Shown here: piece by piece, positions 2,610 through 48,536 of the stretch
Numbering within the stretch: the stretch's first letter is position 1
Layout: each line of letters starts with the position of its first letter
DNA from: Mobula hypostoma
Lineage: Eukaryota
Assembly: GCF_963921235.1 (NCBI RefSeq)
Contig: NC_086108.1
Location: forward strand, 3,720,001 to 3,784,000
Reading direction: 5' to 3'
DNA length: 64,000 bases
Translations under genes and position numbers: made by a program
Notes under the pieces: generated by a model
What the model saw: the letters and a program-made list of their open reading frames with translations, nothing else
Database searches by the model: none
Told to the model about the DNA's origin: nothing

Positions 2610-3925
2610 TTCAAAGTTCAAAGAAAACTTATTATCAAAGTACATATGTATTATCATATACAACCCTGAGATTCGTTTTCTTGTGGACATTCACAATAAA
2701 TCCAACAACTATAATAGAATCAGTGAAATACATACCACACCCAACAGGGCAGACAATCAGAGTACAGAAGGCCAACAAATGCAAATACAAACAGAAAGAA
2801 ATAATAATAATAAACAAATAAACAACAAATATCCAGAACATGAGATGAAGAGTCTTTGAAAGTGAGTTCATAGGTTGTGGGAATATTTCAATGATGGGGC
2901 AAGTGAAGTTGAATGTAGTTATCCCCTTTAGTTCAGGAGCTTGATGGTTGTGGGGTAATAACTGTTCCTGAACCTGGTGGTGTGGGACCTGAGGCTCATT
3001 GTGGTGAGTGAAGTTATCCACACTGGTTCAGGAGCCTGATGGTTGTGGGGTAATAACTGTTCCTGAACCTGGTGGTGTGGGACCTGAGGGTCATTGTGGT
3101 GAGTGAAGTTATCCACACTGGTTCAGGAGTCTGATGGTTGTGGGGTAATAACTGTTCCTGAACCTGGTGGTGTGGGACCTGAGGCTCATTGTGGGGAGTG
3201 AAGTTATCCACACTGGTTCAGTAGCCTGATGGTTGTGGGGTAATAACTGTTCCTGAACCTGGTGGTGTGGGACCTGAGGCTCATTGTGGTGAGTGAAGTT
3301 ATCCACACTGGTTCAGGAGCCTGATGGTTGTGGGGTAATAACTGTTCCTGAACCTGGTGGTGTGGGACCTGAGGGTCATTGTGGTGAGTGAAGTTATCCA
3401 CACTGGTTCAGGAGCCTGATGGTTGTGGGGTAATAACTGTTCCTGAACCTAGTGGTGTGGGACCTGAGGCTCATTGTGCTGAGTGAAGTTATCCACACTG
3501 GTTCAGGAGCCTGATGGTTGTGGGGTAATAACTGTTCCTGAACCTGGTGGTGTGGGACCTGAGGCTCCTGTACCTCCTTCCCACTGGTAGCAGTGAGAAG
3601 AGAGTATGTCCTGGGTGGTAGGGATCCCTGATGATGGATGCTGCTTTCCTGCGACAACATTTCATGTAGTGCTCAATGGTGGGGAAGGATTTTACTTATG
3701 ATGGACTGGACCACATCCACTACTTCTTTGTAGGATTTTCCGTTCAAGGGCATTGGTGTTTCCATACCAGGCTGTGACGCAGCTGGTCAGTATACTCTCC
3801 ACTACACATCTATAGAAGTTTGTCAAAGTTTTAGATGTCGTGCTGAACCCGCAAACTTCTAAGGAAGCAGGGGCACTGCTGTGCTTCCTTTGTAATGGCA
3901 CCAAGTGCTGGGCCAGGGCAGGTAC
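2610..3925 (-). mobile_element. Rex1/Babar-like LINE 3' fragment containing a 95-bp mini-array
   Basis: Minus-strand TLTNFYRCVVESILTSCVTAWYGN and a 3' tail (ttcaaagttcaaag on +) flank the array. Confidence 0.75.
2918..3567. repeat. 95-bp tandem array, about 7 copies
   Basis: Same unit as the terminal satellite. ORF-track entries recur every 95 bp. Confidence 0.95.
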
Positions 3926-4320
3926 ATTTCTTGTCAAAGCATGTACGTTATCGAAGTATATACACAAACCTGACCTTCGTTCTCCTGCTGGAAGCCACGA
4001 AATTGTGAAGAGGGACGGGATCTGTTGAGTTGAGCACCACCAGCCATCAGTCACTGTATATTGGTATTTTGGAGATTTTTCACAAGTTTTAAGCCAACAA
4101 ATTACCGACTCAAAAGAAATACTTTGCAAAGATAAACACGTTTTGTGTTTCCTTGAAACGTTTATGCATAAATCACTGTTTTCAAATTTCATTCCCTACT
4201 GCCTGGCAGTCACAGCTATTTGTCCTTGGAAGTGTGATTCGGATGCAAGGAGGTGTGGAGAATCTTTGATGGGTTTGTCATCAAATGTATACCTTGTCTC
4301 GGACTGAAATAACATCCTAC

Positions 4321-4348
4321 TCGGTTTCTTCTGTCTGTCTTCTTGTAG
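4321..4348 (+). promoter_or_regulatory. Probable splice acceptor of the first coding exon (implies an upstream non-coding exon)
   Basis: Polypyrimidine tract tcggtttcttctgtctgtcttcttgtAG ends 96 nt before the ATG. Confidence 0.55.
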
Positions 4349-4444
4349 TGACGATCATACTGGGGTAGGATAGCGACTCGTCTGCCTGGGCCATTCAGGA
4401 GAGAGAGAGAGAGAGAGACTCTTAACCCGAGTCTAACCTTGAGC

Positions 4445-4541
4445 ATGATGTCCTACATTAAACAACCACATTATGCAGTCAACGGGCTGACCCTTACCGG
4501 CTCGGGTATGGACCTCTTGCACTCGGCCGTCGGATATCAAA
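4445..4541 (+). CDS. otx5: Otx5/Crx homeobox gene, coding exon 1 (97 nt, phase-1 end)
   Basis: ATG at 4445 reads [32 protein letters not shown], the Otx N-terminus with Otx5-type YIKQPHY and LLHSAVGY. A canonical donor A|GTAAGT follows at 4542. Confidence 0.93.
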
Positions 4542-4789
4542 GTAAGTCGTTAATATTTTGTTCAGACTCCCTTTTCCTCACCGTTCCCTCCAGGGTGTGC
4601 AGCCACGCAGTAACCGAAATGCTTCCGTGCTCATAGCCTTTGTTGCCACGCAGCTGGAAACTTCTTGTACGTAATGTAAATTTAAAGTGCTGCGCAGATT
4701 TTAGGCCGCGTAAAAAAATAAAATAAAATTTAAAAAAATTCCTGCTCTGTTCCACACACACATATAACAGCTGAGCCCGGGATTGAAAA

Positions 4790-5007
4790 CAAGAGAGAAT
4801 CTGCAGATGCTGGAAATCCGAGCAGCACACACAAAATGCAGGAGGAACTCAGCAGGCCAGGCAGCATCTATGGAAAATAGTACAGGCAACGTTTTGAGCT
4901 GAAACCCTTCTCCAGTCCTGCTGAAGGGTTTCGGCCTGAAACGTCGACTGTACATTTCTCCGTAGCTGCTGCCTGGCCTGCTGAGTTCCTCCAGCATGTT
5001 GTGTGTG
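4790..5007. mobile_element. Inverted (palindromic) pair of Penelope-derived repeat ends
   Basis: cacacacaaaatgcaggaggaactcagcaggccaggcagc is mirrored by gctgcctggcctgctgagttcctccagcatgttgtgtgtg. Confidence 0.65.
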
Positions 5008-5744
5008 AGGCTAGGATCGAGTCTGGGCTTCAAGAGCTGTGGGGCAGGGGTTCTGCTGCCTGTGCCTCTCACTCTGAGTTGCGGGGTGGGGAGCTGAGGT
5101 CTGTGTGATACTTCCAGCTGCAACTCACTGGTCACTGATGTCTGCCTTCAAACAGACAACTTTGGGTGCGAGACCCTCCCTGACACTAGGGCATTGATTC
5201 AAAGTGAAAGAAGATGCAAGGTTTGCTAAGTTATGTGAAGAACAGATAAAGATTAAAGGTTAGATTTATTTGTCACACGTACAGTGAAATGCGTCGTTTG
5301 TCCGAGAATGTGCTGAGGGAAGCCTGAGAGTGTTGCCATGGCTCTGGCATCAACATAGCTCGCTCACAACCCACTAACTCTAACACAGCTTACCCTTAAG
5401 CTTTTCACCTTTCGCCCTTAACCCATGACCTCTAGTTCTAGCCTTACCCAATCTCAGTGGAGAAAGCCTGCTTGCAGCTACTGTATTGATACCCCTTATA
5501 ATTTTGTATGCCTCTAATCTTCTACATTCTAAGGAATGAAGCCCCCACTTACTCAATCTTGCTCTGTAAGTTAGAATATAGGGATCAGGACATCCTGAGG
5601 ACATGCAGTTTTATAGAACTCAGGACATAGCTTAGTACAGGCCCTTTAGTCCATCATAACTGTGCCAAATTAAACTCATCCCTTCTGCATGCACGTGATC
5701 CACATCGCTCCATTCTGCGCACATTCATGCGCCTGTCTAATGAT

Positions 5745-6240
5745 GCGGAGACACATCCTTGGGTGCGCTGGACACATCATCACTGATGTAACCTGGGGTC
5801 ATCGGGGGTTTCGAGTCTTTCAACATCAGACACGCTCGCCCAGGCGACCCAGCCAGGGTTGGTGAGGCTTGCGTCCCAGCAGCATTGGTCCACGTGATCA
5901 ATAGCCATCTGGAGGCTCACTCAGCAGCCTCTCTGACGATCCTGATGGCTCGTTCTTTGCAGCCCCCCCTGTAGTGCCAAGGAGAGAATAGGTTCTGCAG
6001 AGCGAGCAGCCAACGAAACCTCCGCACCCCATCTCTATGGGCTCGTACCGTGTCCTCCACCCTGTCTCTGGCACTGCTCTACCAGCTCCTGGGGTTTGCC
6101 TTTCTTATGCTCGAACACCACCTCAATCCGGTCTTCCCAAGGAACTCTCAGTTCTACCATGACCACCTACTTTGAGATTTCTGACAGAATAACCATGTCA
6201 AGCCTCAGTGATGATGATGTGATGGTCAGGGCACTTTAAT
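5745..6240 (-). mobile_element. HERO-like (restriction-like endonuclease) non-LTR retrotransposon 3' fragment
   Basis: Minus-strand translation LRLDMVILSEISK*VVMVELRVPWEDRIEVVFEHKKGK...EMGCGGFVG resembles the degraded PD..D/ExK endonuclease C-terminus of HERO-clade elements. Confidence 0.6.
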
Positions 6241-6329
6241 TGCTTCTCAAAACCGACTGAGCTCCTTAAACACCTCTGTCATATCTGTCTCCACAGCCGC
6301 CCCTTGCAGCACATTCCAGCCACCCACCA

Positions 6330-6782
6330 CTCTCTGCGTGAACACTTGCCTCACACAGCTCTTGTAAATTCCAGTAAATGCATGCCCACTCCTCCAGGAG
6401 GACCACTACCTCGTCATGGAGTTTGGAGGCTTGCAGGCCTCGATGACCCGGAGAGCTATGTTGGCTGGAGTCAGGGTTTTGTCACCCGTGCCAAACAGGT
6501 CAAAGGGTAGAGGACAGACTCAGAGTGGTCCCCTGGTCCTCCAGGTTCAGGGATTCAGCTCAGGGTAACAACCCTGACTGGTCAAACAAAATTGTTACGG
6601 AAACAGCAATGGAGAATCCTTCTGCATCTGAGTGTGACGGTATTCCTGAGTCTCCACCCGGGACTTGCATGACTGACAGTGGTGAAAACTGAGCTGACGA
6701 AGAAAGCTCTGAATACTGCTAGTGACGGAGGACCTTCACCGCTGCCCTAGGTGCTAATGGTGTGATGGGCAAAAAGTAAGCG
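6330..6782 (+). mobile_element. RTE-related non-autonomous repeat
   Basis: Reverse-complement match to 30310-30700, ending in a gtaag tail. Family assigned from recalled RTE-like motifs. Confidence 0.45.
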
Positions 6783-7739
6783 TCCTTGCTAGTATTTGAC
6801 ATTTCTACCTTGGGAGGGGTGGTAAAATAGCTTGTGGCGGAATTAGAATGAGAATGGGGTTCGTTATTACTCTCTAATATGTTGTGAAATTTGTTTTGTG
6901 GCAGCAGTAATGTGCAGGGACACAAACATTTCCATAAATTACAAATTAAAAATAATTTTTTTTAGAAAAAGGAGTACTGAGTTAAATGACAAACAAGAGA
7001 AAATCTGCAGATGTTGGAAATTCAGGCAACACACACAAAAATGCTGGAGGAACTCAGCAGGCCAGGCAGTGCCTATGGATTTAAATAAACAGTCAGGGTT
7101 TCAGGCTGAGAACCTTCTTCAGAACTGCGGAGGAAAGGAGAAGACTCCAGAATGAAAAGGTGGGGAGAGGGGAAGGAGGGCAGCTCAAAGGTGACATGTG
7201 AGCTAAGGTGACATGTGAGCTAGGTGGGTGAGAAAGGTCAAGGGCAGGAGGAGAACAGATCATGGGAGAAAGGGAAGGAGGAGGGCATGGGCCCAGTAAT
7301 GGGTGTCTTCTTGAGGCATTCATAATGAGGATTTCCTGGATGGTGGAGAGCATGGTGATGCTGCTGCCTGAGCCCTCAGAGCTCTGCTGTAAACTCTTCC
7401 TAGTGTAGATGGTCGAAGGTGTGGAGGGTGGGGAGAGCCAGTGAGAATGCAGGGAGACAAATCTACAATGTTTTTATTTATATATTGAGATACAGAGCAG
7501 AATAGGCCTTTCTGGGCCTTCCAGCCGAGCCGCCCTGCAACCCCTCCATTTAATCCTGATTAGAGCTCATCACTCACATATGTCATGAAATTAGTATTTT
7601 TGTGGCAGCAGTACGATGCAATACATTAAATCACTACAGGACTGGGCAAACGGCTTAGGCACTGTACTGCACATCATGGAAATGGGTTCTTCAGCCTTTA
7701 CAACAGAGATGAGGAGGAATTTCTTTAGCCAGAGGGTGT

Positions 7740-8178
7740 TGTCGGATGTCTGATCCTCAGGGTTCTTTCAGGAGTCAGGAATGATGAGAAGTCTTAATCC
7801 CGAGATCTCAATTTGTTTTAGAGTACAAACAAACATAAAAATACTAAGAAAACTAAATAAAGAGCTGAGAAACAGTGCTAAGGGGGAACTAATGCAAAGA
7901 CAAAAGAATAAAGGTGGTGCTTGAAAAATCTATCACCTTTGTAGATAAAGTCAGGGAAATTCCTCAGATAGGAATAAACTAGTTAATAGGTTACATATTT
8001 AAACAATAACATCACATAGGTAATGTGCTAATACTTAGCCAATGAAAAATGAGAGTGGTGATAAACCAGTAGTTTAGCTGCTATTCCGCTTTCTACCAGT
8101 CAATGTGAAAAATTTAAGAGTTTGTTAAAAAGTACAAATCTTATAAAAAGTATTATTAAAGAAAAGTGGTTTCCAACA
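7740..8178. mobile_element. Putative solo LTR inserted in a CR1 fragment
   Basis: Ends TGTCGGA...TCCAACA with near-TSD gtgt/gtga. It interrupts the CR1 string agccagagggtg|gtgataaatctgtg. Confidence 0.55.
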
Positions 8179-8713
8179 GTGATAAATCTGTGCAATTATT
8201 TGCCACAGACGGCTATGGAAGCTGAGTCATTTGAGTGTATTTAAAGTAGAGATTGATAGTTTCTTGATTAGTCAGGGCATCCAAGATTATGGGGAGAAGG
8301 CAGAAGAATGGTGTTGAGAGGGATAATAAATTAACTATGATGGAATGATGCCGTAGACTTGATGGGCTGAACGGCCTAATTCAGCTCCTATGGCTAGTTT
8401 ATTCATTCTTTGATAATAAACATACTTTGAATCTTTGAATTCTGTAACCTTCAGAAGGTGTCAGAGTCAGACTGTACTGAACAAGACCCTTCAGCCCAAC
8501 TCATCTAGGCTGACGCAGATGCCTACCGAACTAGGCCTATTTGACCGTATTTGGCCCAATTTCTATAGAGCACAGGTTCTCAACCCGAGATCCATGGACA
8601 TGTCGGTTAATGGTCGGCACCCATGGCATGAAAATGGTTGGAAAGGCTTGCTTTAAACCTTTCTAATCTAGTCACAACAGCAGTTTGTTAATTGGGGAAG
8701 AATCAGTGAGATG

Positions 8714-9195
8714 CACTCTGTGGCTACATTATTAGATACCCCTTGAACCCGATAAAGTGGCCACTGAGTATATGTTCATGGTCTTCTGCCGCACGGTTCA
8801 ATGTGTTGTGCGTACAGAGATGCTCTTTTGCACACCACTTTTGTAACATGTGGTTATTTGAATTACTGTCACCTTGAGCCAGTCTGGCCATTCTCCACTG
8901 AACTCTCTCACTAACAAAGCGTTTTCATCACGGAACAGCTGCTCACTGTAAACTCCAGAGACTGTTGTGCATGAGAATCAGTTTCTGAGGTACTCAAACC
9001 ACCCATCTGTCACCGACAATCATTTCAAAAGTCGCTTAGACCATATTTTTTTCTGTATCATGATGTTTGGTCTGAACAGCAACTGAGCCTCTTGACCATG
9101 TCTGCATGCTTTTATGCACTGAGTTACTGCCACATGATTGGCTGATTAGATGTTTGCATTAATGAGCAGGTGTACCTAATAAAGTGGCCACTGCG
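8714..9195. mobile_element. Non-autonomous Tc1/mariner-like DNA element
   Basis: Terminal inverted repeats cactctgtggctacattattagatac / gtacctaataaagtggccactg. A related fragment lies at about 25250-25395. Confidence 0.55.
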
Positions 9196-9684
9196 AGACA
9201 AAGACAAGACAAATTCATCTTAAACTCCATTTAATGATAGTCAAAATACTTCTTTCCTGAAACTTAATACTTAAATAATCAATGAAGTTTCTTTGTAACG
9301 TTAAAAAACACTGCAGGAATTTAGTGCACAATAATGATCCCATAAGTTTCCTCATGGTGCCTGGACAATAAGTTTTAAGTTAAGGAGATAGTGCAAGCAA
9401 GTTCACTGGTTCCATTTAATATCAGAGAATGTATACAGTATACAACCTGAAATCCTTACTCTTCACTGACATCCTCGAAGCAGATGAGAAACCCCAAAGA
9501 ATGAATGACTGGGAAACAACATAAGAACCCCAAAGCCCCTGCTCCCCTCCCACACAAAAGCAGCATCAACTCTCCTCCCACTCTCCGTCCACACAAGTAA
9601 CAGCAAAGCCCCAAAGAGTGACCATGGTCTAGAGTCCATCAAAAGCCACCGTTCATCCCAACAGTTCAACATCCCACAGGCTCT

Positions 9685-12354
9685 CTTGCGTCTGCAGAAC
9701 TACATATATATTAGATAAAAGCATGCACGCAGGAGATGGCTCTAACTGGTGGATTCACATTGCAATGAACAAGAGAGAGAGAGAACGATGTGTATGCATA
9801 GACAACAGCGCATGTGCAGACAACAGATCAATATTTGGTGCTAAGCGAGGGGTGTCATTCCCTAAACGAAATAGATCCATACACTACACTTCCTCCCCCT
9901 TTAAATTAATGCAACATAAAACCATAAATGTACAAAACATTCAATTTCCCTTTCATAAACCCATATACCAAATAAACATGCTTTCAGAATAACAGCTCAT
10001 AACTAACTTCACAGCTCTAAAGGTTCAGTCTTCTGGTTGGCGTCTGTTTCTTTCAGGATATCTCCTCTGGGCCTGTGGGGTGGCATCAGATGTGGCAGGC
10101 GTCTTGTCTAAGCCAACATTCTCGGTTTCCAGCGTTGCGTTGCTGTCAGTGACATCATCACAAAGAGATAAGGCTGGTGGATGGAATGTGTCCATCTTGT
10201 TGGATGCAATCAACTCAGTGTTCTTCAGCTGAGCATCCGGTTTCTGGTCCACATGACATCTCTATGTCTGATTTCCAAGATCCACTGTATACGCCAGTGG
10301 TCCAGTTCTTGCAGCTATCCTACTGGGTCTCCACTTGTCTTCTTGGCAATCAGACGCCAGGGCTTCCTGTCCAATCCCAAAGCTCCTTGCTGCTCCACTT
10401 GGATACTGGCTGAACTGTTTATTTTGTACTTCCTTTCATAGGTCTGGTTTCAGGAGGTCTATGCAATTCCTGCTCATGAACAGCATCGCACGCGTTTGAT
10501 TTGTCGTCGCATGAACAGAGTTCCAATACACAAAAAAGAAGTTGTCCACCTTGTGATGTAGAGAAAAGTCCTCCTTGTCCGTTGGTTTAATGGACTTCTT
10601 GAAGGTTTGGATAAACCTTTCAGTTAACCCATTTGTTGCTGGGTGGTGAGGAGCTGACTTGAAATGTCAGATGCTATTTCTCTTCATGAACAGTTGGAAT
10701 TCTTCTGACGTGTATTGTGGTCCAGTGTCACTCACAATTTGTTCTGATAAGCCATTTCCAGTGAAGATAGTCCTCAGAGCAGAGACAGTCTTTGCTGATG
10801 TGGTTGACTTCATTGGTATAACCTCTGGCCACTTCGAATGAGCATTCACAGCAATCAGGAACGTGTAAACCATGAATGGCCCAGCAAAGTCAATATGTAC
10901 ACTTTGCCATGGTGATGGTGGCCACTCCCACTGGTATAACCTTTTGGCATCCTGAATAATTTTTGGCCAAGTCTTCGATCTGTTTATCTATTCCTTCCTC
11001 AAACACCTGATTAGCATTAAGCAGCTGTGACAACCTCTGGTTAGTGCTACCATTTGGGCTGCAGTTGCCTTTTAATGCCACACTGAGAGCTTTGATTTAG
11101 TGCCAGCCTAGTTGGATTTTTCTCAACCATTTACATCTGAAAAGTGCTGGCCCTCCACTTTTCAATACATATCTTAGAAAACAGCCTGTTGTAGTCAGCC
11201 TCTGGAATTATGGATAAATCTGACCCTGTATCTGGCTCCATTTTCAGATCTACACCAGACACATCTATCGTGATCCAGATGATTTTGCAATCTGCTTCAG
11301 TATTACTATGCAGTTCCAGGCATGACAGTTCACCTTTATCAGACTCTGTTGTTTGATTCTGTTTTCCATTTGGTAATTTTATGTATTTACTTAGATATGT
11401 GTTTGAGACTTTTCACTCAGTTTTTATCTGCCTTGCACATTCTCTCTGTGTGATCTTGTCTGTGACACTTTCTGCAGACTTTTTCTTTGAACCACCAGGC
11501 ATTTGCATCATGGGAGGATTTGCCACATCAATATCATTTTTGCCTTTTTGCACCATTCAGGGACACTGTGCCAATAGCCTCATTTCAATGCTTTGACTAC
11601 GCATACCACATACAAGTCTGTCCCTTAATGCATCAGAAAATCCATCTCTAAAGTCACAGTACTGGGAAAGTTTGCACAGTTCTGCAATGTATTCAGAATG
11701 CTTTCACCTTTTGACTGGTTCTTTTGTAAAATCTAAATCTCTCAGCTTTTGCCAACGGCTTAGGATACAAGTGATTTTGTAAAATTGTAGCAATTTCGTT
11801 GAAGCTCTTGCTTGCTGGCTTTCCAGGGATTACTAAGTTGCCTAAGAGACTGTATGACCTTCCACCATTAAGCTAAGAAGCATGAGAGCTTTCTTGTACT
11901 CCCCCATGTTGTTTCTGTTACAAGACAGTTCAACTCTCTTGACATACAACTCCCAACCTTCATTAGTGCTTCCAAATTTGTCAACTTCCCTGACTGAAGC
12001 CATGGCCACGCTGTTTTCACTTTATATTCAGCGTGTCTTTCAAAGTTACTCATGCGTCCTTTGGCTTTTTCGTGCTGTTTAACTCTCGCTGTTTCGTCCC
12101 ACCACTATCGGTGCAGTTCGTGATATTCTCAGACTTTCAGGTTCATACTCATAGCCAATTCGCTGTGTCTGTGCCCAACTACATATCAATTAAATAAAAG
12201 CATGAACGCGAGAGATGGCTAGTGTATTCACACTGCAGCGAGAGAGAGAACAATGTGCATGCGCAGACAACAGCGCATGCACAGGTGACAGATCAGTACT
12301 GGTGGGGCTGGGGGGGTGTTCATTGCTCTAAAAGAAATAGAGCCATACATTACG
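9685..12354 (-). mobile_element. Internally deleted Gypsy/Ty3 LTR retrotransposon (decayed)
   Basis: About 200-bp direct repeats at about 9685-9888 and 12160-12354. PPT AGGGGGAGGAAG (9889-9900) abuts TGTAG, and a PBS-like TTGGCTATGAG lies at about 12148-12158. Gag, protease (DTGSDLSII) and integrase remnants (FLIAVNAHSKWPEVIPMKSTTSAKTV; HPATNGLTERF) are present, but RT/RNase H is largely missing. Confidence 0.85.
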
Positions 12355-12639
12355 TCTCTCTCACCAACAAGGGAGAGAGAGATATCACTCCTTTCACAGC
12401 AAGAAGGGGTCAAACAGCTCACTGTTTCACTGTTAGTGGAAAAAGAGGCATTAGGAGAAGAAGAATTTAAATTGTTCCAGTGACGGGCTGGGAGAAGTTG
12501 CCCTCTGACACCATCTGTAGCTCCGCCCACATTCACCAAAACTTATTATTAATTAGGATGCAAAATATTTTAACCAGAACAGATTTTCAAAAATACTTTA
12601 GTTATAAGAGCAAGGCGGAGCCGGTGTATTTTTTGGCAA

Positions 12640-13100
12640 GTTTACAAGGATGTTGCCGGGTCTGGAGGACCTGAGTTATAAGGGAAGATTGAATAGGTTA
12701 GAACTTTACTCCTTGGGACATAGAATATTGAGAGAAGATTTGATAGAGTTATACAAAATTATGAAGGGTATAGATAGGGTAAATGGAAGCAGGCTTTTTC
12801 CACGGGTTGGACAGAATTATGACCAGAGGTCATGGGTTAAGGGTGAAAAGTGAAAAGTTTAAGAGGAAAATGAGGGGAAACTTATTCACTCAGAGAGTGG
12901 TGAGAGTGTGGAATCAGTTGTCAGCACAAGTGATGCATGCGAGCTCGATTTCAACGTTTAAGAGGTTTGATAGGTGTGTGGATGGCAGGAGTATGCAGGG
13001 CTATGGTCCCGGTGCAGGTCAATGGGAGTAGGTAGTTTAAATGGCTCATCATGGACTAGATGGGCTGAAGGGCCTGTTTTTGTGCTGTCCTTTTCTATGA
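12640..13100 (+). mobile_element. CR1 LINE 3' fragment
   Basis: MLPGLEDLSYKGRLNRLELYSL...TRGHGLRVK...FTQRVVRVWNQL is the CR1 RT C-terminus. Confidence 0.8.
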
Positions 13101-13383
13101 TTCCATCTCCTATGAGACCATAAGAGATAGGAGCACTAGGCTATTTGGCCCATTGGTTCTGCTCTGCCATTCAATCATGGCTGATTTTCTATCCCTCTCA
13201 ACCTCATTCTCCTCATAACCTTTGACACCCTTACTAACCAAGAACCTAGAAACCTCTGCCTTAAATATACCCAATGACCTGCGTCCACAGACATCTGTGA
13301 CAATGAATTTCACAGATTCACCACTCTCTGGTTGAAATTCTTCCTCATCTCCATTCTAAATGGACGTCCCTCTCTTCTGAGGC

Positions 13384-15330
13384 TCTGGTCCTAGACTCCC
13401 CCACTATAGGAAACATCCTCTCCATATCCACTCTATCTGTGCCCTCTGGTCCTAGACTCTCCCAGTATAGGAAACATCCTCTCCACATCTACTCTATCTG
13501 CGCCCTCTGGTCCTAGACTCCCCCCCACTATAGGAAACATCCTCTCCACATCCACTCTAACTGTGCCCTCTGGTCCTAGACTCCCCCACTGTAGGAATCA
13601 TCCTCTCCGCATCCACTCTATCTGTGTCCTCTGGTCCTAGACTCCCCCACTTGAGGAAACATCCTCTCCAAATCCACTCTATCTGTGTCCTCTGGTCCTA
13701 GACTCCCCCATTATAGGAAACATCCTCTCCACATCCATTCTATCTGTGTCCTCTGGTCCTAGACTCCCCCACTACAGGAAACATCCTCTCCACATCCACT
13801 CTGTCTGTGTCCTCTGGTCCTAGACTCCCCCATTATAGGAAAGATCCTCTCCACATCCACTCTATCTGTGTCCTCTGGTCCTAGACTCCCCCATTATAGG
13901 AAAGATCCTCTCCACATCCACTCTATCTGTGTCCTCTGGTCCTAGACTCCCCCATTATAGGAAATATCCTCTCCACATCCACTCTATCTGTGCCCTCTGG
14001 TCCTAGACTCCCTCACTGTAGGAAACATCCTCTCCACATCCACTCTATCTGTGCCCTCTGGTCCTAGACTCCCCCACTGTAGGAATCATCCTCTCCGCAT
14101 CCACTCTATCTGTGCCCTCTGGTCCTAGACTCCCCCACTTTAGGAAACATCCTCTCCAAATCCACTCTATCTGTGTCCTCTGGTCCTAGACGCCCCCATT
14201 ATAGGAAATATCCTCTCCACATCCACTCTATCTGTGCCCTCTGGTCCTAGACTCCCTCACTGTAGGAAACATCCTCTCCACATCCACTCTATCTGTGCCC
14301 TCTGGTCCTAGACTCCCCCACTGTAGGAATCATCCTCTCCGCATCCACTCTATCTGTGCCCTCTGGTCCTAGACTCCCCCACTTTAGGAAACATCCTCTC
14401 CAAATCCACTCTATCTGTGTCCTCTGGTCCTAGACGCCCCCATTATAGGAAATATCCTCTCCACATCCACTCTATCTGTGCCCTCTGGTCCTAGACTCCC
14501 TCACTGTAGGAAACATCCTCTCCACATCCACTCTATCTGTGCTCTCTGGTCCTAGACTCCCCCACTTTAGGAAACATCCTCTCCACATCCACTCTATCTG
14601 TGCCCTCTGGTCCTAGACTCCCTCACTATAGGAAACATCCTCTCCACATCCACTCTATCTGCGCCCTCTGGTCCTAGACTCCACCACTACAGGAAACATC
14701 CTCTCTATATCCACTCTATCTGTGCCCTCTGGTCCTAGACTCCCCTACTTTAGGAAACATCCTCTCTATATCCACTCTATCTGTGCCCTCTGGTCCTAGA
14801 CTCCCCCACTTTAGGAAACATCCTCTCCACATCCACTCTATCTGTGTCCTCTGGTCCTAGACTCCCTCACTATAGGAAACATCCTCTCCACATCCACTCT
14901 ATCTGTGCCCTCTGGTCCTAGACTCCCTCACTGTAGGAAACATCCTCTCTACATCCACCCTAACTGTGTCCTCTGGTCCTAGACTCCCCCATTATAGGAA
15001 ATATCCTCTCCACATCCACTCTATCTGTGCCCTCTGGTCCTAGACTCCCTCACTGTAGGAAACATCCTCTCCACATCCACTCTATCTGTGCCCTCTGGTC
15101 CTAGACTCCCCCACTATAGGAAACATCCTCTCCACATCCACTCTATCTGTGCCCTCTGGTCCTAGACTCCCTCACTGTAGGAAACATCCTCTCCACATCC
15201 ACTCTATCTGTGTCCTCTGGTCCTAGACTCCACCACTACAGGAAACATCCTCTCCACATCCACTCTATCTGTGTCCTCTGGTCCTGGACTCCACCACTAC
15301 AGGAAACATCCTCTCTATATCCACTCTATC
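13384..15330. repeat. 61-bp minisatellite, about 32 copies, derived from a CR1 3' segment
   Basis: Unit ctctggtcctagactcccccactataggaaacatcctctccacatccactctatctgtgcc shifts 1 nt per 60-nt line. It sits inside a minus-strand CR1 fragment (13110-15480). Confidence 0.95.
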
Positions 15331-15336
15331 TAGGCT

Positions 15337-16660: not shown

Positions 16661-16742
16661 AGGGAAGGAATTGAGATATGAGGTTAATATTTGATCTCCC
16701 AATTTACCTTGCTATGGCCCTTGCACTCTGCTGTCTACTAAC

Positions 16743-20379: not shown

Positions 20380-20442
20380 GCTGAAGTCTGGAATTGGGGA
20401 ATATTTTATGAATGTAATTGACTGGCCTGATTTCTGCCTCAG

Positions 20443-20594
20443 CAACTCCACGGAAACAGCGCAGGGAGAGAACGACCTTCACCCGTGCACAGCTGGACAT
20501 CCTGGAGTCTCTCTTCGCCAAGACTCGCTACCCTGACATCTTCATGCGGGAAGAGGTGGCACTAAAGATCAATCTCCCCGAGTCCAGAGTTCAG
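20443..20594 (+). CDS. otx5: Otx5/Crx coding exon 2 (152 nt), homeodomain helices 1-3 start
   Basis: Acceptor tttctgcctcAG (20441-20442), then (T)[50 protein letters not shown], then donor CAG|GTAAGA. Exons 1+2 total 249 nt, so the frame is preserved. Confidence 0.96.
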
Positions 20595-21292
20595 GTAAGA
20601 GATGGGTTTGGGGCACACTTCAGAGCTGGTGCAGGGTTTGAGGGACTCAGAGGCATAGGCTTGGATTGGCGACGTCGCCAAAATGGATGGTGTAGTACTC
20701 AATGTGGAAGATTATGTGATGATCTGGGGAGGAGAGCCAGGAATGGCAGGTGGAATTCAACTGGGACGAGAGACGTGTGGTATTCCAGTTTTTTTATTTC
20801 GAGATCCAGCATAGTAACAGGCCCTTTTGGCCCAATGAATCTGCGTCCATAAGATATAGGAGCAGAATCAGGCCATTCAGCCCATCGAGTATGCTTCACC
20901 ATTTCATCATGGTTGATACATTTTCCATCTCAGCCCCAATCTCCTGCCTTCTCCCCATTCATGCCCTGACTAATCAAGAATCTATCAACCTCTGCCTTAA
21001 ACATACACAATAACTTGGCCTCCACTGCTGTCCATGGCAACGAATTCCATGGACTCACCACCCTCTGGCTAAAGAAATGTCTCCTCATCTCCGTTCTAAA
21101 CGGATGTTCCTCTATTTCACTGCAACGGGAGACATCCTCTCACATCCACTTTATCGAGGCCTTTCAACATTCGATAGTTTTCAATGAGATTCCCCATCAT
21201 TCTTCTAAATTCCAGCGAGTACAGGCCCAGAGCCATCAAACACTCCTCCTACAATAACCCTTTCATTCCTGCAATCGTTGTCGTCCATTGTT

Positions 21293-24995: not shown

Positions 24996-27920
24996 ATAAG
25001 AACTTAGTTAGACCCCACTTGGAGTACCAAGTTCAGTTCTGACCTCACTAGAGGAAGAATGTGAATACTATAGGGAGAGTGAGAGGAGATTGCCTGGACT
25101 GGAGAGCATGCCTTATGAGAATAGGTTGAATGAACTTGGCCTTTTCTCCTTGGAGTCACAAGGGATGAGAGGTGACCTGATAGAGGTGTATAAGATGATG
25201 AGAGGCATTGATCATGCGTATAGCCAAAGACTATCAAAATATTAATGCTCACGGTGGTGTGCAGAAGAGCATCTTCGAACGCACAACATACTGAATCTTG
25301 AAGAAGATGGGCTACAGCAACAGAAGACCATGAAAATACATTTGGTGGCCTCTTTTTTTTGGTACAGGAGATGTCTAATAGAGTGGCCACTGAATGTATG
25401 TTCAGCATTGGTTGTCGTAGTGCAGGGCCGTAGGATATACATCACAGCAGAAGGGCATTCAGCTCCTATTAGTCCTAAGAGCACAGGATATAGAAGCAGA
25501 GTTAGGCTGTCGGGTCCACCAACTCTACTGGACCATTCAATCATGGCTGAATATTTTCCACCCCATTCTCCTTAATTTCCATGTTATCTTTCCCCAGTTT
25601 ACCAAACAAGAGTCTGTCAAAATCTGCCTTGAATACATCCAGTCGCTTGGCTTCTACAGTCCTCTGTAGCAATGAATTCTGCAGATTCACTACACTGAAG
25701 CTGACTAGGTTCCTCATCTCAGTCCCTTTATTCTGAGGTTGTGCCCTCTGGTCCTAGGCTTCCCCACTGGTGGAAACATCCACTCCATGTCCACTCTATC
25801 AAGGTCTTTGGTAACCAAAAGATTTCAATGAGATCTTGGGGCCCAACACATCCATGCCAACCAAAATGGCTACCTTGTGAACATCCCTTGGACCCTCGTC
25901 AGGGCCAGCACCTCTTTCCTGAGAACCTGGCCCAAAATAGCTCCCAATACTGCAAGTTAGAGTTGTACTTTCTGTTTCCTCCGTCCCTGGTTTTATAGTT
26001 TAGCACTCCACCCCTGCCTTTCAGATCCTGAGTTGCTCGTAAGATCATAAGACATGGGAGCAGAATTAGGCCATTTGGCCCACTGAGTCTGCTCTGCCAC
26101 TCCATCATGGCTGATTTATTATCCCCCTCAACCCCACGGGTAAGACCTGAGTGTCCTGTGAGGATCAGAGGTGAGTGAGCTGCCCCAGACTGGACATGAC
26201 AAGCCCCTTCACAAATTCAGTCATTCAATAGTTCCATTTAATATTGGAGAATGCATACAATATACAATCTGAAATTCTTGCTCTTCACAGGCATCCATGA
26301 AAAAGCCAGAAGAGTACCCCAAAGAATGAGTGACAGCAAAAATGTTAGAATCCCAAAGCCCCCTTCTCCACAAGCCTCAGCAAAGCATCAACCTTCCCCT
26401 CTCCCCCACCCTACTCATTTCAGCACGAAGCATCAGCGCCCAACACCCACCAAGTAAGCAATAGCAAAGCTCTCCAAAGAGAGACCATGCTCTGCAGTCC
26501 AACAAAAACCATTGTTCACCCAACAGTTTGACATGCCACAGGCTCTCTTGTGCCCTAATAGAGGGGCAGAGAGGTGTCACACAGTGAGAGGGGAGACCTA
26601 CAAAAACAAGCAACTCTCTGATTTATGGTGTTAAAATCAGCCGCATCACCTTTTCCGAGTTCTCCAACTCGAGAATCGGCAACGAACTCTCCCCCACCAA
26701 TGAGAGAGAGAGAGAGAGACAAAGAGCAGTTCACCAAGTACAAAGCCCCTGACACTGATCCGCTGTTCCCAATATTCTGTTTTCTTCTGTGACGCTTCAG
26801 TCAACGGCACCAGCATGGAATGAACTGATACTGAGAAAGGGCCGGTCAGTGAGCCCTGGGAGCAAGTCCCACGGCCACAAAGAGCCACAGTTTGAATGCA
26901 GCTGCCGGTCAAGGGCATTGATACAGCCCGTTCACCTTGAAAAGGGAAAAAAACAGAGACACGTTGATCTCTATCCAATAAAGATTTCCCCAGTTTTATC
27001 AATAATATCTGCTGTTTGACGCTATCCTGTAGCCCCCAATCTCGACATCATTTGCAAACTGCAAAAATTGCGCTGCTGACTCTAAACTGAAGAGTAAGAA
27101 TTTCAGGTTGTACACGGTATACACTCTCTGATATTAAATTTTCTATGAAGAATAAGAATTGCAGGTTCTATACCATAGACACCAGGTTAGCAAATTTAAC
27201 GTCACATGCCGGTGATAATAAACCTGATTCTGATTCTGATTCTGACACTCGCTGATGTTAAGTGGAACTGTTGAAGTTGGAAACGGCAGTCAGGGTGTCA
27301 GACGCACAAAATGCTGGCGGAACTCAGCAGGTCAGGCAGCATCTTTGGAGAGGAATAAATAGTCAATGTTTCCGGCCAGAACCTTTCACAAACCTTTGAG
27401 TTTCTCCAGAATTTTGTGTGTATTGCTCTGGATTTTCAGCACCTACAGACTTTCTACTGTTTCGTTACAGTGTCATGCAATGTAGAGAATGGCAGTGATG
27501 TACATTAATTCCATTTTATTTTAAACACATTTCCATTATCTTTGCATATTCTCTACCACTCCTGAACATTAAAGTTAACTTACAGTGGCTAACTAGACTA
27601 TCAACCCACGGGGGTTTGGGCTCTGGGAGAAAACTGGAGCCCCCAGAGCAAACCCTCAGAGTGTAGAAACTTCACTCAAGGGTAGATGCTAGGTCCATGA
27701 CCCTGGGGCAGGGAGGTCTGACCTGCTGTGTCACTGTACCACCCATTGGCCTGTCATCTGATTGCATAATGTCAAAGGGTCTTGTAATTATACTTTCCAG
27801 AATTCCAAACCTTTTTCAAAAGATTAAATAGGTTAGATTGAATACAACACATTGGTGAGGCTTAATTTGGAGCACTGTGTGCAGTTTTGGTCACCTACCT
27901 ATAGGAAAGATGTAAATAAG

Positions 27921-33612: not shown

Positions 33613-33828
33613 CCAGAGCAACACACACAAAGTGCTGGAGGAACTCAACGGGTCAGACAGTGTCGATGGTCAGAGTAACACACACAAAATGCTGGAGGAA
33701 CTCAGCAGGTCAGACAGTGTCGATGGTCAGAGTAACACACACAAAATGCTGGAGGAACTCAGCAGGTCAGACAGTGTCGATGGTCAGAGTAACACACACA
33801 AAATGCTGGAGGAACTCAGCAGGTCAGG
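33613..33828. repeat. 57-bp tandem array, about 4 copies
   Basis: Unit cagagtaacacacacaaaatgctggaggaactcagcaggtcagacagtgtcgatggt. Confidence 0.9.
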
Positions 33829-34649
33829 AAGCATATATGGAAATGAATAAACAGCCAATGTTTTGGACCAAGGCCTTCATCAGCCAGATAAGGGATCCAA
33901 ATGTTGGTAGCTTGCAGAGGCAGTGTGGAAGCGTAGACAGAGTCAGTGGAGGTCAAGCTGATTTCTGTAATGGAAATGGGTCATGTCCATAATCTCCATA
34001 ATTGCCTTATCCTGCTGAGTGAGAGCTTCTATAGAGGGGAGTAACCAGTTGATGTTTCAGGCTGAGACCCTGCATCATGTCCTGTTAAACTGTCTTAGCT
34101 CAAAATGTTGACTCTTTATTCCTTTCCACCAATGCTGCCTGACCTGCCGAATTCCTCCAGCATTTTGTGTGTGTTACTCTGACCATCGACACTGTCTGAC
34201 CTGCTGAGTTCCACTTCTGCTGCCAGCTCATTCCAAACTCTCACCATCCTCTGAGCGAAGAGGTCCCCCCTCATGTTTCCTTAAACCTTTCACTATCAGC
34301 CCATGATCACTAGGTCTAGTCTCACCCATCCTCAGAGGAAAAAGCCTATCTATACCCCTCGTAATTTTGTGCTCCTTTATCATTCTCCAACATTCCAGGG
34401 ATTAAAGTCCTAACCTGTTCAACCTTTCCCGATAACTCAGGTATTTAAGTCCTGGCAACATGCTTGTAAATGTTCTTTGCACTCTTTCAACCTTATTGAC
34501 ATTTTGTGTTTATGAGTGAGAGGAGATGCTTTGACAGTGGAATCTTGCTGTGCATCATAGGAAGTGACTGGGGTTGTGGCACACTCCCGACGGGGCTCAG
34601 AAAGGCTAGGACGTTTGTTCTAATCTCTGTTTTTACCGTCCCCGTGAAG

Positions 34650-35270
34650 GTCTGGTTCAAGAACCGCCGAGCCAAATGCCGCCAGCAACAACAGCAGAGC
34701 AGCGGCCAGGCTAAGGCCCGGCCAGCCAAGAAGAAGAACTCGCCGGCCCGGGACACAAGCTCAGAGACCAACGCCAGCGGCCACTACAGCCCGACGCCCG
34801 CCTGCACGGGGGTGACAGCCAGTTCCACCTCCAACGCCACCGTGTCCATCTGGAGCCCAGCTTCCATCTCGCCCATCCCGGACCCGCTGTCCTCCACGGC
34901 GTCCTGCATGCAGCGGTCCACCGCCTACCCCATCACCTACAGCCAGGCTCCGGCCTACAGCCAAGGCTACAGCAGCTCCCCTGCCTACTTCAGCGGCCTC
35001 GACTGCGGCTCCTACCTCTCCCCGATGCCCCCTCAGCTCTCCGCTCCCGGGGGCACCCTCAGCCCCCTGGGCACGCCGACCATGGGCAGTCACCTCAGCC
35101 AGTCCCCAGCCCCTCTGTCTGCTCAAGGTTACGGCTCCGCAGGGCTGGGGTTCAATACTGTCGACTGCCTGGATTACAAAGACCAGAGCACATCCTGGAA
35201 GCTGAACTTCAGTGCTGCTGACTGCCTGGATTACAAAGACCAGAGCTCTTGGAAGTTCCAAGTCTTGTAA
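34650..35270 (+). CDS. otx5: Otx5/Crx coding exon 3: homeodomain end (K50), WSP motif, duplicated Otx tail
   Basis: Acceptor AG at 34648-34649, then [16 protein letters not shown]...SIWSPAS...[35 protein letters not shown] and TAA. No Otx1-type His tract. The spliced product is 289 aa. Confidence 0.96.
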
Positions 35271-36355: not shown

Positions 36356-36372
36356 TTAGAAATACTAATAAA
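36347..36372 (+). terminator. Candidate polyadenylation signals for otx5
   Basis: These are the first AATAAA hexamers I found after the stop (36347-36352, 36367-36372), followed by a T/GT-rich stretch (ctttgtatttgtac). Confidence 0.35.
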
Positions 36373-38545: not shown

Positions 38546-38692
38546 AGCAGGCCTTTCGAGCCACCGATTCTTTCTCTATTATTGATTGAGATACAGTGTG
38601 GAACAGACCCTCTGGCCCTTTCAGCCGTACCACCCAGCAACCCCCAAATTAACCCTGGCCTAATGATGGGACAATTTACAATGACCAATTAT

Positions 38693-43332: not shown

Positions 43333-43351
43333 GTGTGTGTGTGTGTGTGTG

Positions 43352-43435
<84 letters not shown>

Positions 43436-43484
43436 TGTCAGTGTGTGTGTGTGTGAGTGTGTGTCTGTCTGTGTGTGTGTGTGG

Positions 43485-43521
<37 letters not shown>

Positions 43522-43522
43522 T

Positions 43523-43556
<34 letters not shown>

Positions 43557-43611
43557 CTGTGTGTGTGTGTGAGTGTGTCTGTCTGTGTGTGTGTGTGTGT
43601 GTGTGTGCGTG

Positions 43612-43678
<67 letters not shown>

Positions 43679-43701
43679 CTGTGTGTGTGTGTGAGTGTGT
43701 C

Positions 43702-43788
<87 letters not shown>
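43333..43788. repeat. Interrupted (TG)n microsatellite, about 455 bp
   Basis: Read directly. It has expanded from the gtgtgtgttgc tract of a Penelope-derived repeat that flanks both sides. Confidence 0.97.
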
Positions 43789-43789
<1 letters not shown>

Positions 43790-45559
43790 GCTTTAGATTT
43801 CCAGCATCTCAAGATTTTTTCATGTTTACCTTCAAATTACGCCCCCTTATTTCCACGCTAAGAAAAAAGTTTCTGGCCATTCACGTACCTCTTGTAATCT
43901 TGTAGACTTCAGTCAAGTCACTTCTCACCCTCCCTCACTCAGACTTTCCTTGTAATTATGGCTATTTTGGTGAAGGAAGGTGGAAATAATGCTTGTACAG
44001 TGTTACAATTGTCACGACACATAAATATTGCTAGATTTGATCAACTTGTGAGCTGAATTCACAATCCTTGTGCACACGGATCTTATTTTTTAAGGTTTGC
44101 AGGGAAAACAATTTTTTTTAAAGAGGGGAAATGCAATGCCGTCCTCCCCTTCATTAGAATGAAGTTGGTAAGGGCTTTTGAAGAGCGCTCAAAAATGTGC
44201 ACACTCTCAATTCTGACCATCCTGGGGAGCTAGAGAAAGGCAGCGTTTCCTGGCTGGACTGCCGGCAACTGTTGTTGAGTTTGAAAATCAGGTCACGTCC
44301 AGTCAAGTCGCTGGTCTTGAGTATAGGTGTCTCCTCCACCTGTATGCAGTGTTCCAGTGTAAACGCACGCCACAAAATGCCCGTTTCTCCCAATCTCACT
44401 TTCACATGAAGCTCTATCTTGTATACTGTACTGTGCAAGTCTTAGGCACATGCATATAGCTGGGGTGTCTGAGACTTTTGCACAGTTCTGTATTTGTCAA
44501 TGTGGAACGGAGAGTGAGTTGGTAAATCTGGTGGGAGCAAAGGATGTTGGGAATGGCGAGGGTGGAGTGTCGCGGGAGGGGTGTGGGACAGCTGGCAGAG
44601 AAGGAGTGCCGGGGTGGGGCTGCTGCAGGGGCAGGCAGCCCTGAGACAGCAGGCAAGGTCACCTCATTCCCAAACAATCAGTTTATTGATCATTACAGAA
44701 TGTCTCTGTGGTGCTTCCCAATCCCACCCCTCTCCCTTCCCCTTTTCCCAGCCATGATTCTCCTCTCCCTGCCCCTTTCCCCTTCCCACTCCCAGCCCTC
44801 AAATGAGGCCCAATATCAGAATCAGGTTTATCAGCACTCACACATGTCATGATATTTGCTTTTCTGAGGCAGCATTACAGTGCAATACATAAAATTACGA
44901 CAGTGCTGTGCAAAAGTCTTAGGCACTGTAGATATACATATGTGTTCAATGGTTTAATTTAATAGCAGGGGATGTATACAGTATACAACCTGAAAGTCTT
45001 ACTCTTCACAGACCGTGCCTAAGACTTTTACACAGTGCTGTATGTGCTTAACAAAAGGCTAATAAGTAGGACAGCAATAATTCGTCATGAAATAGAACAG
45101 CTCATCCAGTTATTAAGATATAACTTTTACACTGGGGATTACGTCAGCCAGTTAAAATGTTTTTAGTGTTCCTTTAATACATTATTAAAATCTCAATTCC
45201 TCATAGAGGTACAATGTTTTACTTTGGAAATAAGTGGTAATTAAGTAGCATAAAATAGTCTGTAGAGATATTTTTCGGAATATATTTATTGGTTTAGCTG
45301 TGGTCAAACTGCTGTACATATCTCACAAATTGATGTGATGGATTCTTTAATTGTTAATTAATGACAGTACAAAGAAGTCTGGAATAAAAAGTAAGAAAAA
45401 TAAAGCAAAGATATTGCACAGTGATGGAGTGATTCTGCTGTTTCTTGTGGTGGGGACAGAGGAGCAGTTCAGAACGTGAGGATATCCCGCAGCAAGAAGC
45501 TCACTACCTGACTTTGCAAATGCAGTCCATTGTTGGAACTGTGGATGATATTGTCCAGG

Positions 45560-46490
45560 AGGTTCAAGTTCAAAGTAAACTTATTATCAAAGTACATGCA
45601 TGTCTCCGAGATCAGAATCGGGATCTGCTTTCATATCACCAGCATCTGTCGTGAAATTTGTTGTCTTTATGACAGTGGTACATAATAATGGAGGAAAAAC
45701 TGAATAACAGTAAATATATATATATGTATATTAAATAGTTAAATTAAATAAGTAGTATAAGTAGTACAAAACAGAAATAAAAAATTAATGAGGTAGTGTT
45801 GACGGGTTCAATGTTCATTCAGGGATTGGATAGCAGAGGGGAAGAAGCTGTTCCTGAATCATTGAATGTGTGTCTTCAGGCTCCTGTACCTCCTCCCTGA
45901 TGATAGCAATGAGAAGAGGGCATGTCCTGGGTGGTGGGGGTCCTTAATGATGGATGGTGCCTTTTTGAGGAACAGTTCCATGAAAATGTCCTGGATACTA
46001 CGGAGGCTAGTACCCGTGATGGAGTTGGCTAAGTTTTCAACTCTCTGCAGCTTCCTTCAGTCCTGTGTCATTGCTCCCCCACTTCCTACCCTGCACCAGA
46101 CAGTGATGCAGCCAGTTAAAATGCTCTCAAAGGTACATCTGTAGAAATTTGTGAGTGTTTTAGGTGACATACCAAATCTCCTCAAACTCCTCACACTAAA
46201 TTGTAGCTGCTGTTTTGCCTTCTTTAGTGCTGTATTGATGAACATCATTTTCCTGTGGACATACTCAATTAACCCATTAAAAAATAATAACCTTAACGGA
46301 ATCAATGAAAGATTGCACCAACTTGGGTATTGAATCAGAGTGCAAAAGACAACAAACTGTGCAAATACAAATAGAAAGAAATAATAATAATTAGCAAATA
46401 AAAAAGTAATAAATATCAAGGACGTGAGATGAAGAGACCTTGAAAGTGAGTCACGGGAACATTTCACTGATGGGCAAGTGAAACTGAGTG
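45560..46490 (-). mobile_element. Rex1/Babar-like LINE 3' fragments
   Basis: LRRFGMSPKTLTNFYRCTFESILTGCITVW plus LINE tails. Confidence 0.7.
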
Positions 46491-46934
46491 ATCTTCTCTG
46501 TTTCAATCTCTCTATTTAACTACTTATTATTTATTTGATGCTATTTATTTATTTATTTATTTATCTGTCTATATGTCTATGTCCTTATTTATTATAACTT
46601 ACAGTAATTTTTGAGTCACTACCTAACTTCCCAAGTGCAGTCTGTTGTTAGAACTGACAAGATACTGCCCACTAAGTTTAAAGTAAATTTATTATCGAAG
46701 TACATATGTATCATCATATACAACCCTGTGATTCTTTTTCATGTGGACATTTACAATACAAAGAAAAAAAGAAATACCATGAAACGTAATAGAATCGATG
46801 AAATCCACACGTAACAGGATGGACAAACAAAAACAATTATGCAAATATAAATAAATAGACAATAAATATCGAGAATGTGAGGGGAAAAGACCTTGAAAGG
46901 GAGTCCATAGGTTGTGGGATCAGTTCAGAGTTGA

Positions 46935-47404
46935 GGTGAGTGAAGTTATCCACATTGGTTCAGGAGCCTGATGGTTGTGGGGTAATAACTGTTCCTGAAG
47001 CTGGCGGTGTGGGACCTGAGGCTCATTGTGGTGAGTGAAGTTATCCACACTGGTTCAGGAGTCTGATGGTTGTGGGGTGATAACTGTTCCTGAACCTGGT
47101 GGTGTGGGACCTGAGGCTCATTGAGGTGAGTGAAGTTATCCACACTGGTTCAGAAGCCTAATGGTTGTGGGGTAATAACTGTTCCTGAACCTGGTGGTGT
47201 GGGACCTGAGGCTCATTGTGGTGAGTGAAGTTATCCACACTGGTTCAGGAGCCTGATGGTTGTGGGGTAATAACTGTTCCTGAACCTGGTGGTGTGGGAC
47301 CTGAGGCTCATTGGGGTGAGTGAAGTTATCCACACTGGTTCAGGAGCCTGATGGTTGTGGGGTAATAACTGTTCCTGAGCCTCCTGGTGTGGGACCTGAG
47401 GCTC
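46935..47404. repeat. 95-bp tandem array, about 5 copies, inside a Rex1/Babar-like 3' fragment (46675-47550)
   Basis: Same unit as the terminal satellite. The host resumes at gaggctcctgtaccctctgcc. Confidence 0.95.
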
Positions 47405-48536
47405 CTGTACCCTCTGCCTGATGGCAGCAGGGAGAGAGAGCATGTCCTGGGTAGTGGGGGTCCCTGATCATGGATGCTGCTTTCCTGCCACAATGCTCCA
47501 CGTGGATGTGCTTAACGGTGGGGAGGGCTTTACCCGTGATGGACTGGTCCGCAATACCCAACTTTACACAAAATCTCTTGTGTTCAACGTGTAACCAATT
47601 CACTCTGAATAAAGAACCTCCCTTGTAGTCCTCAATTATATTTAAAAGTGATTCACTCTGGACACACAAGGGAATCTTCTGAGAGACAAGGGAAGTCTCG
47701 ATTTACTCCAGAGCAACACACACACACAATCTGCTGGAGGAACTCAGCAGGTCAGGCAACATCTTGGAAATAAATAAACAGCCAATGATTCCCCCTTCTT
47801 CAGGACTGAGAAGGAAGGAAGGGGGAAGAAGGCAGAATGACATGGTGGGAGAAAGAGGAAGGCTAGCTGGAAGGTGATAAGTGAACAAACAAAAGAAATA
47901 CTGGAAATCTGAGCAACACACACAAAATGCTGAAAGAACTCAACAGGCCGGGCAGCATTTCTGGAAAAGAGTACAGTCGGCATTTCGGGCCGAATCTCTT
48001 CAGCAGGACTGGAGAATAAAAAGCTGAAGAGTAGATTTTAAAGGTGGGGTGAGAGAGAAACACAAGGTGACAGGTGAACCTGGGAGGGGGAAGGATGGAG
48101 TAAAGAGCTGGGAAGTTGATTGGTGAAAAAGACAGAAGGCCATGGAAGAAAGAAAAGGCGGGAGAAGCTCCAGAGGGAGGTGATGGGCGGGCAAGGAGAT
48201 GAGATGAGATGAGGGAGGAAAAGGGGATGGGAAATGGTGACGGGGAGTTGGGGGGCATCGGTGATGGGTGAAGCTAGATGTGTGGTAAAGGTCAAGGGCT
48301 GGAGAGGAAGGAGTCTGACAGGAGAAGAGTGAACATAAGGAGGAGAGGTCCCAGGTTGAGGTGATGGGCAGGTGAGAAGAGGTAAGAGGCAGACATCACA
48401 GACGAGGCAGCAGTGAGAGACGGTCTCACTGAACTCCGTCAAAGAGAAGATTTAAACAGGGAGAGCATGCCTCAAAGAGACTTGGCAGGTGAGCAGCTAA
48501 CCATAAACAGGAGAGATTCTGCAGATGCTGGAAATC

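Follow-up and report, generated by a model that had tools for sequence, protein, structure and literature searches.

How satellites arrive at new loci is an open question, and ordinary satellites leave little trace of their landing sites. A 64,000-nucleotide stretch of the Mobula hypostoma genome (contig NC_086108.1, positions 3,720,001 to 3,784,000 of the forward strand; hereafter the window, in whose positions all coordinates are given) raises this question in an unusually readable form. Arrays of the same 95-bp unit lie in three copies of a long interspersed nuclear element (LINE). The landing sites are old LINE copies with readable subfamilies and private mutations, in which tract ends, direction, and age are measurable locus by locus. 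Did the arrays arise separately, arrive with their LINEs, or enter copies that were already in place? On the evidence of this one window, the 95-bp repeat had a single origin at the end of a LINE and now forms arrays in three old, different LINE copies, which it most likely entered by repair copying.

Near-Identical Units in Diverged LINE Copies

Three arrays of the unit were delimited with Tandem Repeats Finder (TRF): array A at 2910–3567 (6.9 copies of 95 bp), array B at 46931–47404 (5.0 copies), and array C at 54241–64000 (103.2 copies), the last of which continues past the end of the window. All are on the plus strand, in one orientation and within 52 kb. Comparisons used full-length units only, of which there are five in A, four in B, and 93 of 102 in C, leaving out nine length variants in C (eight of 89 bp and one of 97 bp). 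Units are as alike between arrays as within them. Mean identity is 96.3%, 96.5%, and 95.6% between A and B, A and C, and B and C, respectively, and 97.3%, 95.4%, and 96.7% inside A, B, and C. The 95-bp consensus sequences of A and B are identical, and that of C differs at one of 95 sites, itself polymorphic inside C.

The LINE copies that host the arrays, all on the minus strand, are much less alike. Host A consists of a LINE 3′ untranslated region (UTR) with a short-repeat tail at 2610–2930, assigned to a subfamily we call alpha, and, across the array, of the decayed, 5′-truncated C-terminal end of open reading frame 2 (ORF2) at 3568–3907, with frame changes and a stop. Sequence alignment identifies host B as a 3′ UTR of a second subfamily, beta, at 46673–46941, followed by an ORF2 end at 47405–47553 that is truncated after ∼150 bp. 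Host C is a remnant of only ∼75 bp of beta-type 3′ UTR at 54165–54260 that has a deletion and, as far as unit position 19, private changes; its far end lies beyond the window. With gaps excluded, left flanks match at 197 of 237 positions between A and B (83%), 52 of 72 between A and C, and 50 of 69 between B and C (both 72%), and the right flanks of A and B match at 117 of 146 (80%). A nonarrayed copy of the same LINE family and of the subfamily of host A, control D (1451–1951, plus strand), is 80% and 78% identical to the flanks of A. Apart from the pair A and B, arrayed hosts are no closer to each other than A is to this control. The three arrayed copies share one orientation and D, the nearest nonarrayed copy, is inverted relative to them, but copies are too few to judge this arrangement.

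The initial annotation of this DNA had described three arrays of near-identical units in clearly diverged hosts. Both descriptions hold, with ∼96% identity for units versus 72–83% for flanks, and nowhere in the window are flanks as similar as monomers. This contrast excludes the simplest histories. Segmental duplication is ruled out because no DNA outside the LINE is shared on the left of A and B or of A and C (on the right of A and B there are only copies of another dispersed repeat) and because flanks are far less alike than monomers. Independent origin of the three arrays cannot give one consensus and is ruled out as well; at 17% divergence, the probability of zero consensus differences over 95 bases is ∼2e-8. 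Recent retrotransposition is ruled out by the same probability, with consensus differences at 0–1 of 95 sites versus flank divergence of 17–28%.

Variants in units bear on age and direction. Private differences number 6 in 475 bases in A (1.3%) and 7 in 380 bases in B (1.8%), and the flanks of A and B are 17–20% apart. The first unit of B carries a linked two-site haplotype (59G+64C) that is present in 9 of 93 C units and absent from the other units of B, suggesting that B was copied from an array that was already mixed; the last unit of B has two private letters. Array C is a candidate donor or a close relative of the donor, which is in any case predicted to be C-related. Within C (54337–64000), multi-unit blocks recur and eight units have an identical 6-base deletion, and a search for a single higher-order period in this array found none (best lag match 0.13).

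Origin of the Unit and Its Junction

On the minus strand, the unit corresponds to the last ∼76 bases of the LINE ORF2, its stop codon, and ∼17 bases of the 3′ UTR. The stop codon is inside every unit (3489–3491 in the last unit of A). The three arrayed hosts are truncated before the reverse transcriptase. We take the LINE to be Rex1/Babar-like, of which an ORF2 C-terminal stretch resembling PF09004 and a short-repeat tail are presumably features. PF09004 matches control E1 (E = 5e-6) and neither A nor B. Upstream of the unit, the ORF stretch in A agrees with E1 at 18 of 27 residues. A score of 0.91 is given by an Atlas cluster in which 16% of members carry PF09004. A 7-base repeat is present twice at the tail of host A. 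Controls E1 and E2 (45566–46490, minus strand) are nonarrayed and more distant or partial copies. They are of different LINE subfamilies and directly abut, and E2 stops where the unit segment would start.

Units are joined head-to-tail at a junction whose exact 14-mer was found 93 times, the first six of the listed positions all being inside arrays. The exact host continuation has two occurrences, which mark the right ends of A and B. The junction reported in the initial annotation stands as a property of the arrays, but its ATTGTGG motif aligns to GTTGAGG in the left flank of B and in the LINE family as read from sequencing contigs. ATTGTGG is the LINE's own 3′ UTR with two changes, not a foreign linker, and the novel feature is the head-to-tail join itself.

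Contigs of four sequencing runs (at most three samples, from three organisms), compared with positions 1300–3009, contain ∼61,000–99,000 contigs of this LINE family per run. At the junction point, ordinary LINE copies run on into the ORF in 760–1,023 contigs in each of the four runs. The loose ends of 195 contigs in run X2 and 223 in run X11 give the same beta reading, in which CG stands in place of the CA of the satellite. Because the place of ATTGTGG reads as the beta family in both the flank of B and the contigs, the satellite is predicted to descend from one beta-subfamily copy with a few private changes. Host C has TG at the site that is CA in the satellite and CG in the beta family; because of this difference and its deletion, the sequence at its end is not that expected of the founder, unless its end unit decayed separately.

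Depth over the bin that contains the unit is ∼5-fold higher, to which the satellite and ordinary LINE copies may each contribute. Among contigs there are also joints that go back ∼32, 47–48, 51, and 56 bases at 2942–2997, to which other repeats may contribute at this likeness setting. The 48-base joint occurs in 11–17 contigs in each of the four runs and in all three organisms. These joints fall in the same LINE segment, and further tandem families were probably born from this hot spot. Words of window positions 3600–13300 are present in runs of five organisms. The junction pattern has no match in viral and metagenome contigs. A 21-mer of the unit has four matches in metagenomes, without likeness outside the 21-mer, and none in prokaryote genomes.

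Host and Units Disagree at Array A

Array A suggests that units entered a LINE copy already in place. Beside the unit, seven informative sites group A with D and B with C, and one site supports each of the other two groupings. In the alignment of A, B, C, and D next to the unit, E2 looks A-like by eye. The resident type continues into the array: in positions 1–20, the five sites that set the first unit of A apart from the satellite are also those at which D departs from it, and over positions 1–16 this unit has one difference relative to D versus five relative to the satellite. The pattern then reverses, with 11 of 65 sites differing from D and 2 of 66 from the satellite over positions 17–82. 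The switch occurs between ∼2930 and 2951, the latter a position at which A has the satellite letter and most of the contig depth of the family has another. The last unit of A keeps the satellite type for as far as the homology extends.

Host A is thus placed in a D-like subfamily, yet its units are of the type of B and C, making incoming sequence discordant with resident host at this one locus and relative to one main control. A LINE subfamily that already carried the array does not fit the window, because host A sides with nonarrayed D while its units are of the other type. The initial annotation had noted the change from host-type to satellite-type inside the first unit of A and had proposed copying into pre-existing LINE copies in place of three origins or retrotransposition. 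The change is confirmed by the comparison along the unit, and the proposal gains support from the contrast between units and flanks, the subfamily mismatch of A, and the improbability of a shared consensus arising by chance.

A Second Family with the Same Pattern

A 57-bp family follows this pattern in a different repeat. Array S1 (33614–33827, plus strand; TRF) is within a copy of a different dispersed repeat, and array S2 (48537–49267, plus strand; TRF) has the S1 unit in another, diverged copy. Internal units of S1 and S2 differ by 1.3 of 57 bases on average, and the right flanks are alike at 53 of 72 positions and the short left flanks at 27 of 30. The two arrays share a 14-base spacer that differs from the host consensus at five sites and in which a CpG is kept in nearly all units. 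Sixteen rows fall outside the internal units of S1 and S2. One of them, S3, is a third locus that has the 57-bp junction, and each of the remaining 15 has at least four differences from the spacer. S3 (34139–34212, minus strand) has ∼1.3 units and is joined on one side to a fragment that we take to be CR1-like. The end units of the 57-bp arrays revert to host type. A hammerhead-bearing Penelope end as the 57-bp host finds no support, with nothing at gathering level in an Rfam search of window positions 1–54300.

Routes of Transfer

We favor, with moderate confidence, noncrossover copying from an array into pre-existing LINE copies, that is, ectopic gene conversion. A single duplication of the unit would have taken place in one beta-subfamily copy that had private changes, and the duplicated unit would have grown into a satellite. 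Sequence mosaics suggest that an old, dead LINE copy would then break within the unit segment and its broken end would invade an array as repair template. Several units would be copied before the end rejoined its own other end in a noncrossover, synthesis-dependent repair. A short array would take the place of the single host segment, leaving host letters at the outer edges only, and local unequal exchange would afterwards alter the number of units. The numerous dispersed copies of the parent LINE would serve as landing sites. Synthesis-dependent strand annealing is a general route of repair. Synthesis-dependent repair is also drawn on in the available text of Sproul et al. (2020; PMC7403614).

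Conversion and circle integration are distinguishable by counting the host letters kept. Circles excised from a large array might reintegrate into a homologous LINE by one crossover, with local homogenization tidying the ends. Circle reintegration accounts for shared units and variants equally well as conversion and has been proposed for Rsp-like satellites (PMC7403614, in the text available). Nevertheless, one crossover would retain a full host unit split over the end units, and conversion-type replacement fits A better for this reason. In positions 21–82, the end units have one nonsatellite letter in A and two in B, compared with 10 in D and 5–12 expected in A following circle integration. 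For host rates of 8–20%, the binomial P for a retained host unit ranges from 0.04 to <0.001 in A and is at most 0.12 in B. The end units of B permit one crossover between positions 14 and 58 (P = 0.12 at a host rate of 8%), and in S1 one is permitted close to where the first unit ends. Replacement is the better fit for A but is not decisive, and B allows either. Of the two routes offered in the initial annotation, conversion is thus favored at A, and a single-crossover circle, disfavored there, is allowed at B. Taken across loci, we regard circle reintegration as unlikely.

Arrays could instead be old. They would have been seeded long ago, whether by retrotransposition of LINEs bearing the junction or through local duplication at a hot spot, and ongoing exchange between arrays, which rarely overwrote end units, would have kept them alike. 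The hosts of B and C share the subfamily type of the unit, joints in the contigs (47–56 and ∼32 bases back) mark this LINE segment as a hot spot for duplication, and the first and last units of S2 are both host-like but unlike each other, as in an old array whose middle was overwritten. SINE-derived satellites (sSats) of snakes have been read in this manner (PMC10702118, available text). Exchange between loci is still required, however, and the beta-type unit and junction in the D-like host A need a transfer. Old arrays overwritten by later exchange are possible mainly for B and C, and as a general account we consider this about as improbable as reintegrated circles.

Transfer through RNA is very unlikely. 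A satellite transcript could be reverse-transcribed into a LINE copy by template switching or RNA-templated repair, and the unit is indeed LINE sense sequence near the 3′ end. But switching at insertion would give units and flanks of the same age, whereas their observed ages differ, and the unit is without the LINE tail, which in A is ∼300 bp away. Least credible of all are duplication of the region, separate origins, and assembly error: three arrays lie close together in the same orientation and the junctions are known from the assembly alone, but each of A and B has switch points and private variants of its own, run X2 (which may be the assembled sample) is identical to the left flank of A over 1964–2639, and neither the absence of common flanking DNA nor the single consensus is explained.

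Several points weigh against gene conversion as the common route, in addition to the crossover permitted at B and the end units of S2. The subfamily call for A depends mainly on D, the only full control copy, and the right flank of A is without subfamily signal (17, 16, and 13 sites for the three patterns). Later homogenization within an array can delete host letters from end units and imitate replacement. No unit of A or B is exactly matched in C. Lastly, among the contigs listed, the empty orthologous site was not recovered and none from two of the three organisms bridges unique flank and unit, with family copies swamping the listed contigs.

Neighboring Repeats and Genes

Other tandem repeats and genes are present in the window. 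A 61-bp array of 32 units (13383–15331) is inside a copy of another repeat, nonarrayed copies of which are at 766–976 and 25599–25800; its unit is bounded by a short host motif, and it is the single locus of its kind in the window. A degenerate 38-bp array of ∼6 units (51423–51651; TRF) has no other copy found in the window. The plus strand of the 95-bp unit has a folding z of −2.6, reached by 3 of 200 shuffles, and the 57-bp and 61-bp repeats show no such signal in the same shuffle test. With a signal in one of six sequences folded, a hairpin is a weak candidate for the cause of arrays.

Exons of an Otx-family homeobox gene (PF03529), presumably Otx5/Crx, are at 20418–20852 and 34500–35270 (plus strand), between arrays A and B, with S1 and S3 between the two exon segments. 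A Tc1-type transposase reading frame of 275 codons (52955–53782, minus strand) is just left of array C.

Comparison with Known Systems

If units are indeed copied into LINE hosts by repair, caution is needed, as LINE copies can switch subfamily identity in patches. A broader generalization, to which we give somewhat less than an even chance, is that retroelement-born minisatellites of this lineage routinely "home" into the many dispersed dead copies of their parents by repair copying, with several families (95 bp, 57 bp, and possibly more from the LINE segment of the 95-bp unit) doing so in parallel. On this reading a passive repeat would spread genome-wide much as a mobile element does, although it has no enzymes itself, and every colonized copy would be a dated record of ectopic repair. 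A literature search, in which subscription journals were mostly uncovered, listed no paper that treats the 95-bp family or the entry of arrays into copies of a parent element; this is no proof of absence.

Among the closest likenesses are the sSats of squamates, in which arrays at many loci are built from an internal piece of a retroelement and end units continue into the parent (Vassetzky et al. 2023; PMC10702118, available text). As in sSats, the 95-bp unit is internal and end units run into the parent, at both ends of A and B and at the one visible end of C. The same unit is also more alike than its parents, at ∼96% versus 72–83% over three loci here and 89% versus 64% in sSats. Unlike sSats, whose parent is a short interspersed nuclear element, the 95-bp family derives from the ORF2 and 3′ UTR end of a LINE and includes a stop codon. 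The likeness of sSats is attributed to concerted evolution; in the main text as available, "conversion" occurs in one reference title only and "circular" is absent, and supplements may show end-unit patterns like those reported here. A unit of one subfamily in a host of another is not shown in that text, whereas array A has one. Repair copying would supply a mechanism for the between-locus likeness of sSats, which is unexplained.

Rsp-like satellites of the Drosophila simulans clade have spread into 1.688 clusters, for which interlocus conversion and circle reintegration are proposed (Sproul et al. 2020; PMC7403614, available text). As here, new arrays are at loci with homologous sequence, and repeats adjoining the junction disagree with the host cluster. 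In that system a different satellite provides the landing sites, the first join having come about through microhomology between repeats that are unrelated, and empty sites are seen by synteny. In contrast, the 95-bp arrays lie in dispersed copies of the retrotransposon from which the satellite itself derives.

Two further systems share parts of the pattern. CRM1TR and CRM4TR in maize are tandem repeats derived wholly from retrotransposons. Similar regions gave rise to them on more than one occasion, and conversion has shaped their variation; in the available account, two loci 1.4 Mb apart have distinct variants with little or no movement, unlike the 95-bp family, whose variants are common to several loci (Sharma et al. 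2013; PMC3648361). Gene conversion between Alu elements overwrites part of an element with another subfamily and leaves a hybrid (Doronina et al. 2021; PMC8230782, available text). That exchange appears to be a one-for-one replacement, whereas in the present case a tandem array is the source and adds units to the recipient. The ingredients are already in print. At the nucleotide level, evidence for satellites being copied back into old parent copies comes from the mismatch of subfamilies at locus A and, in parallel, from the 57-bp family.

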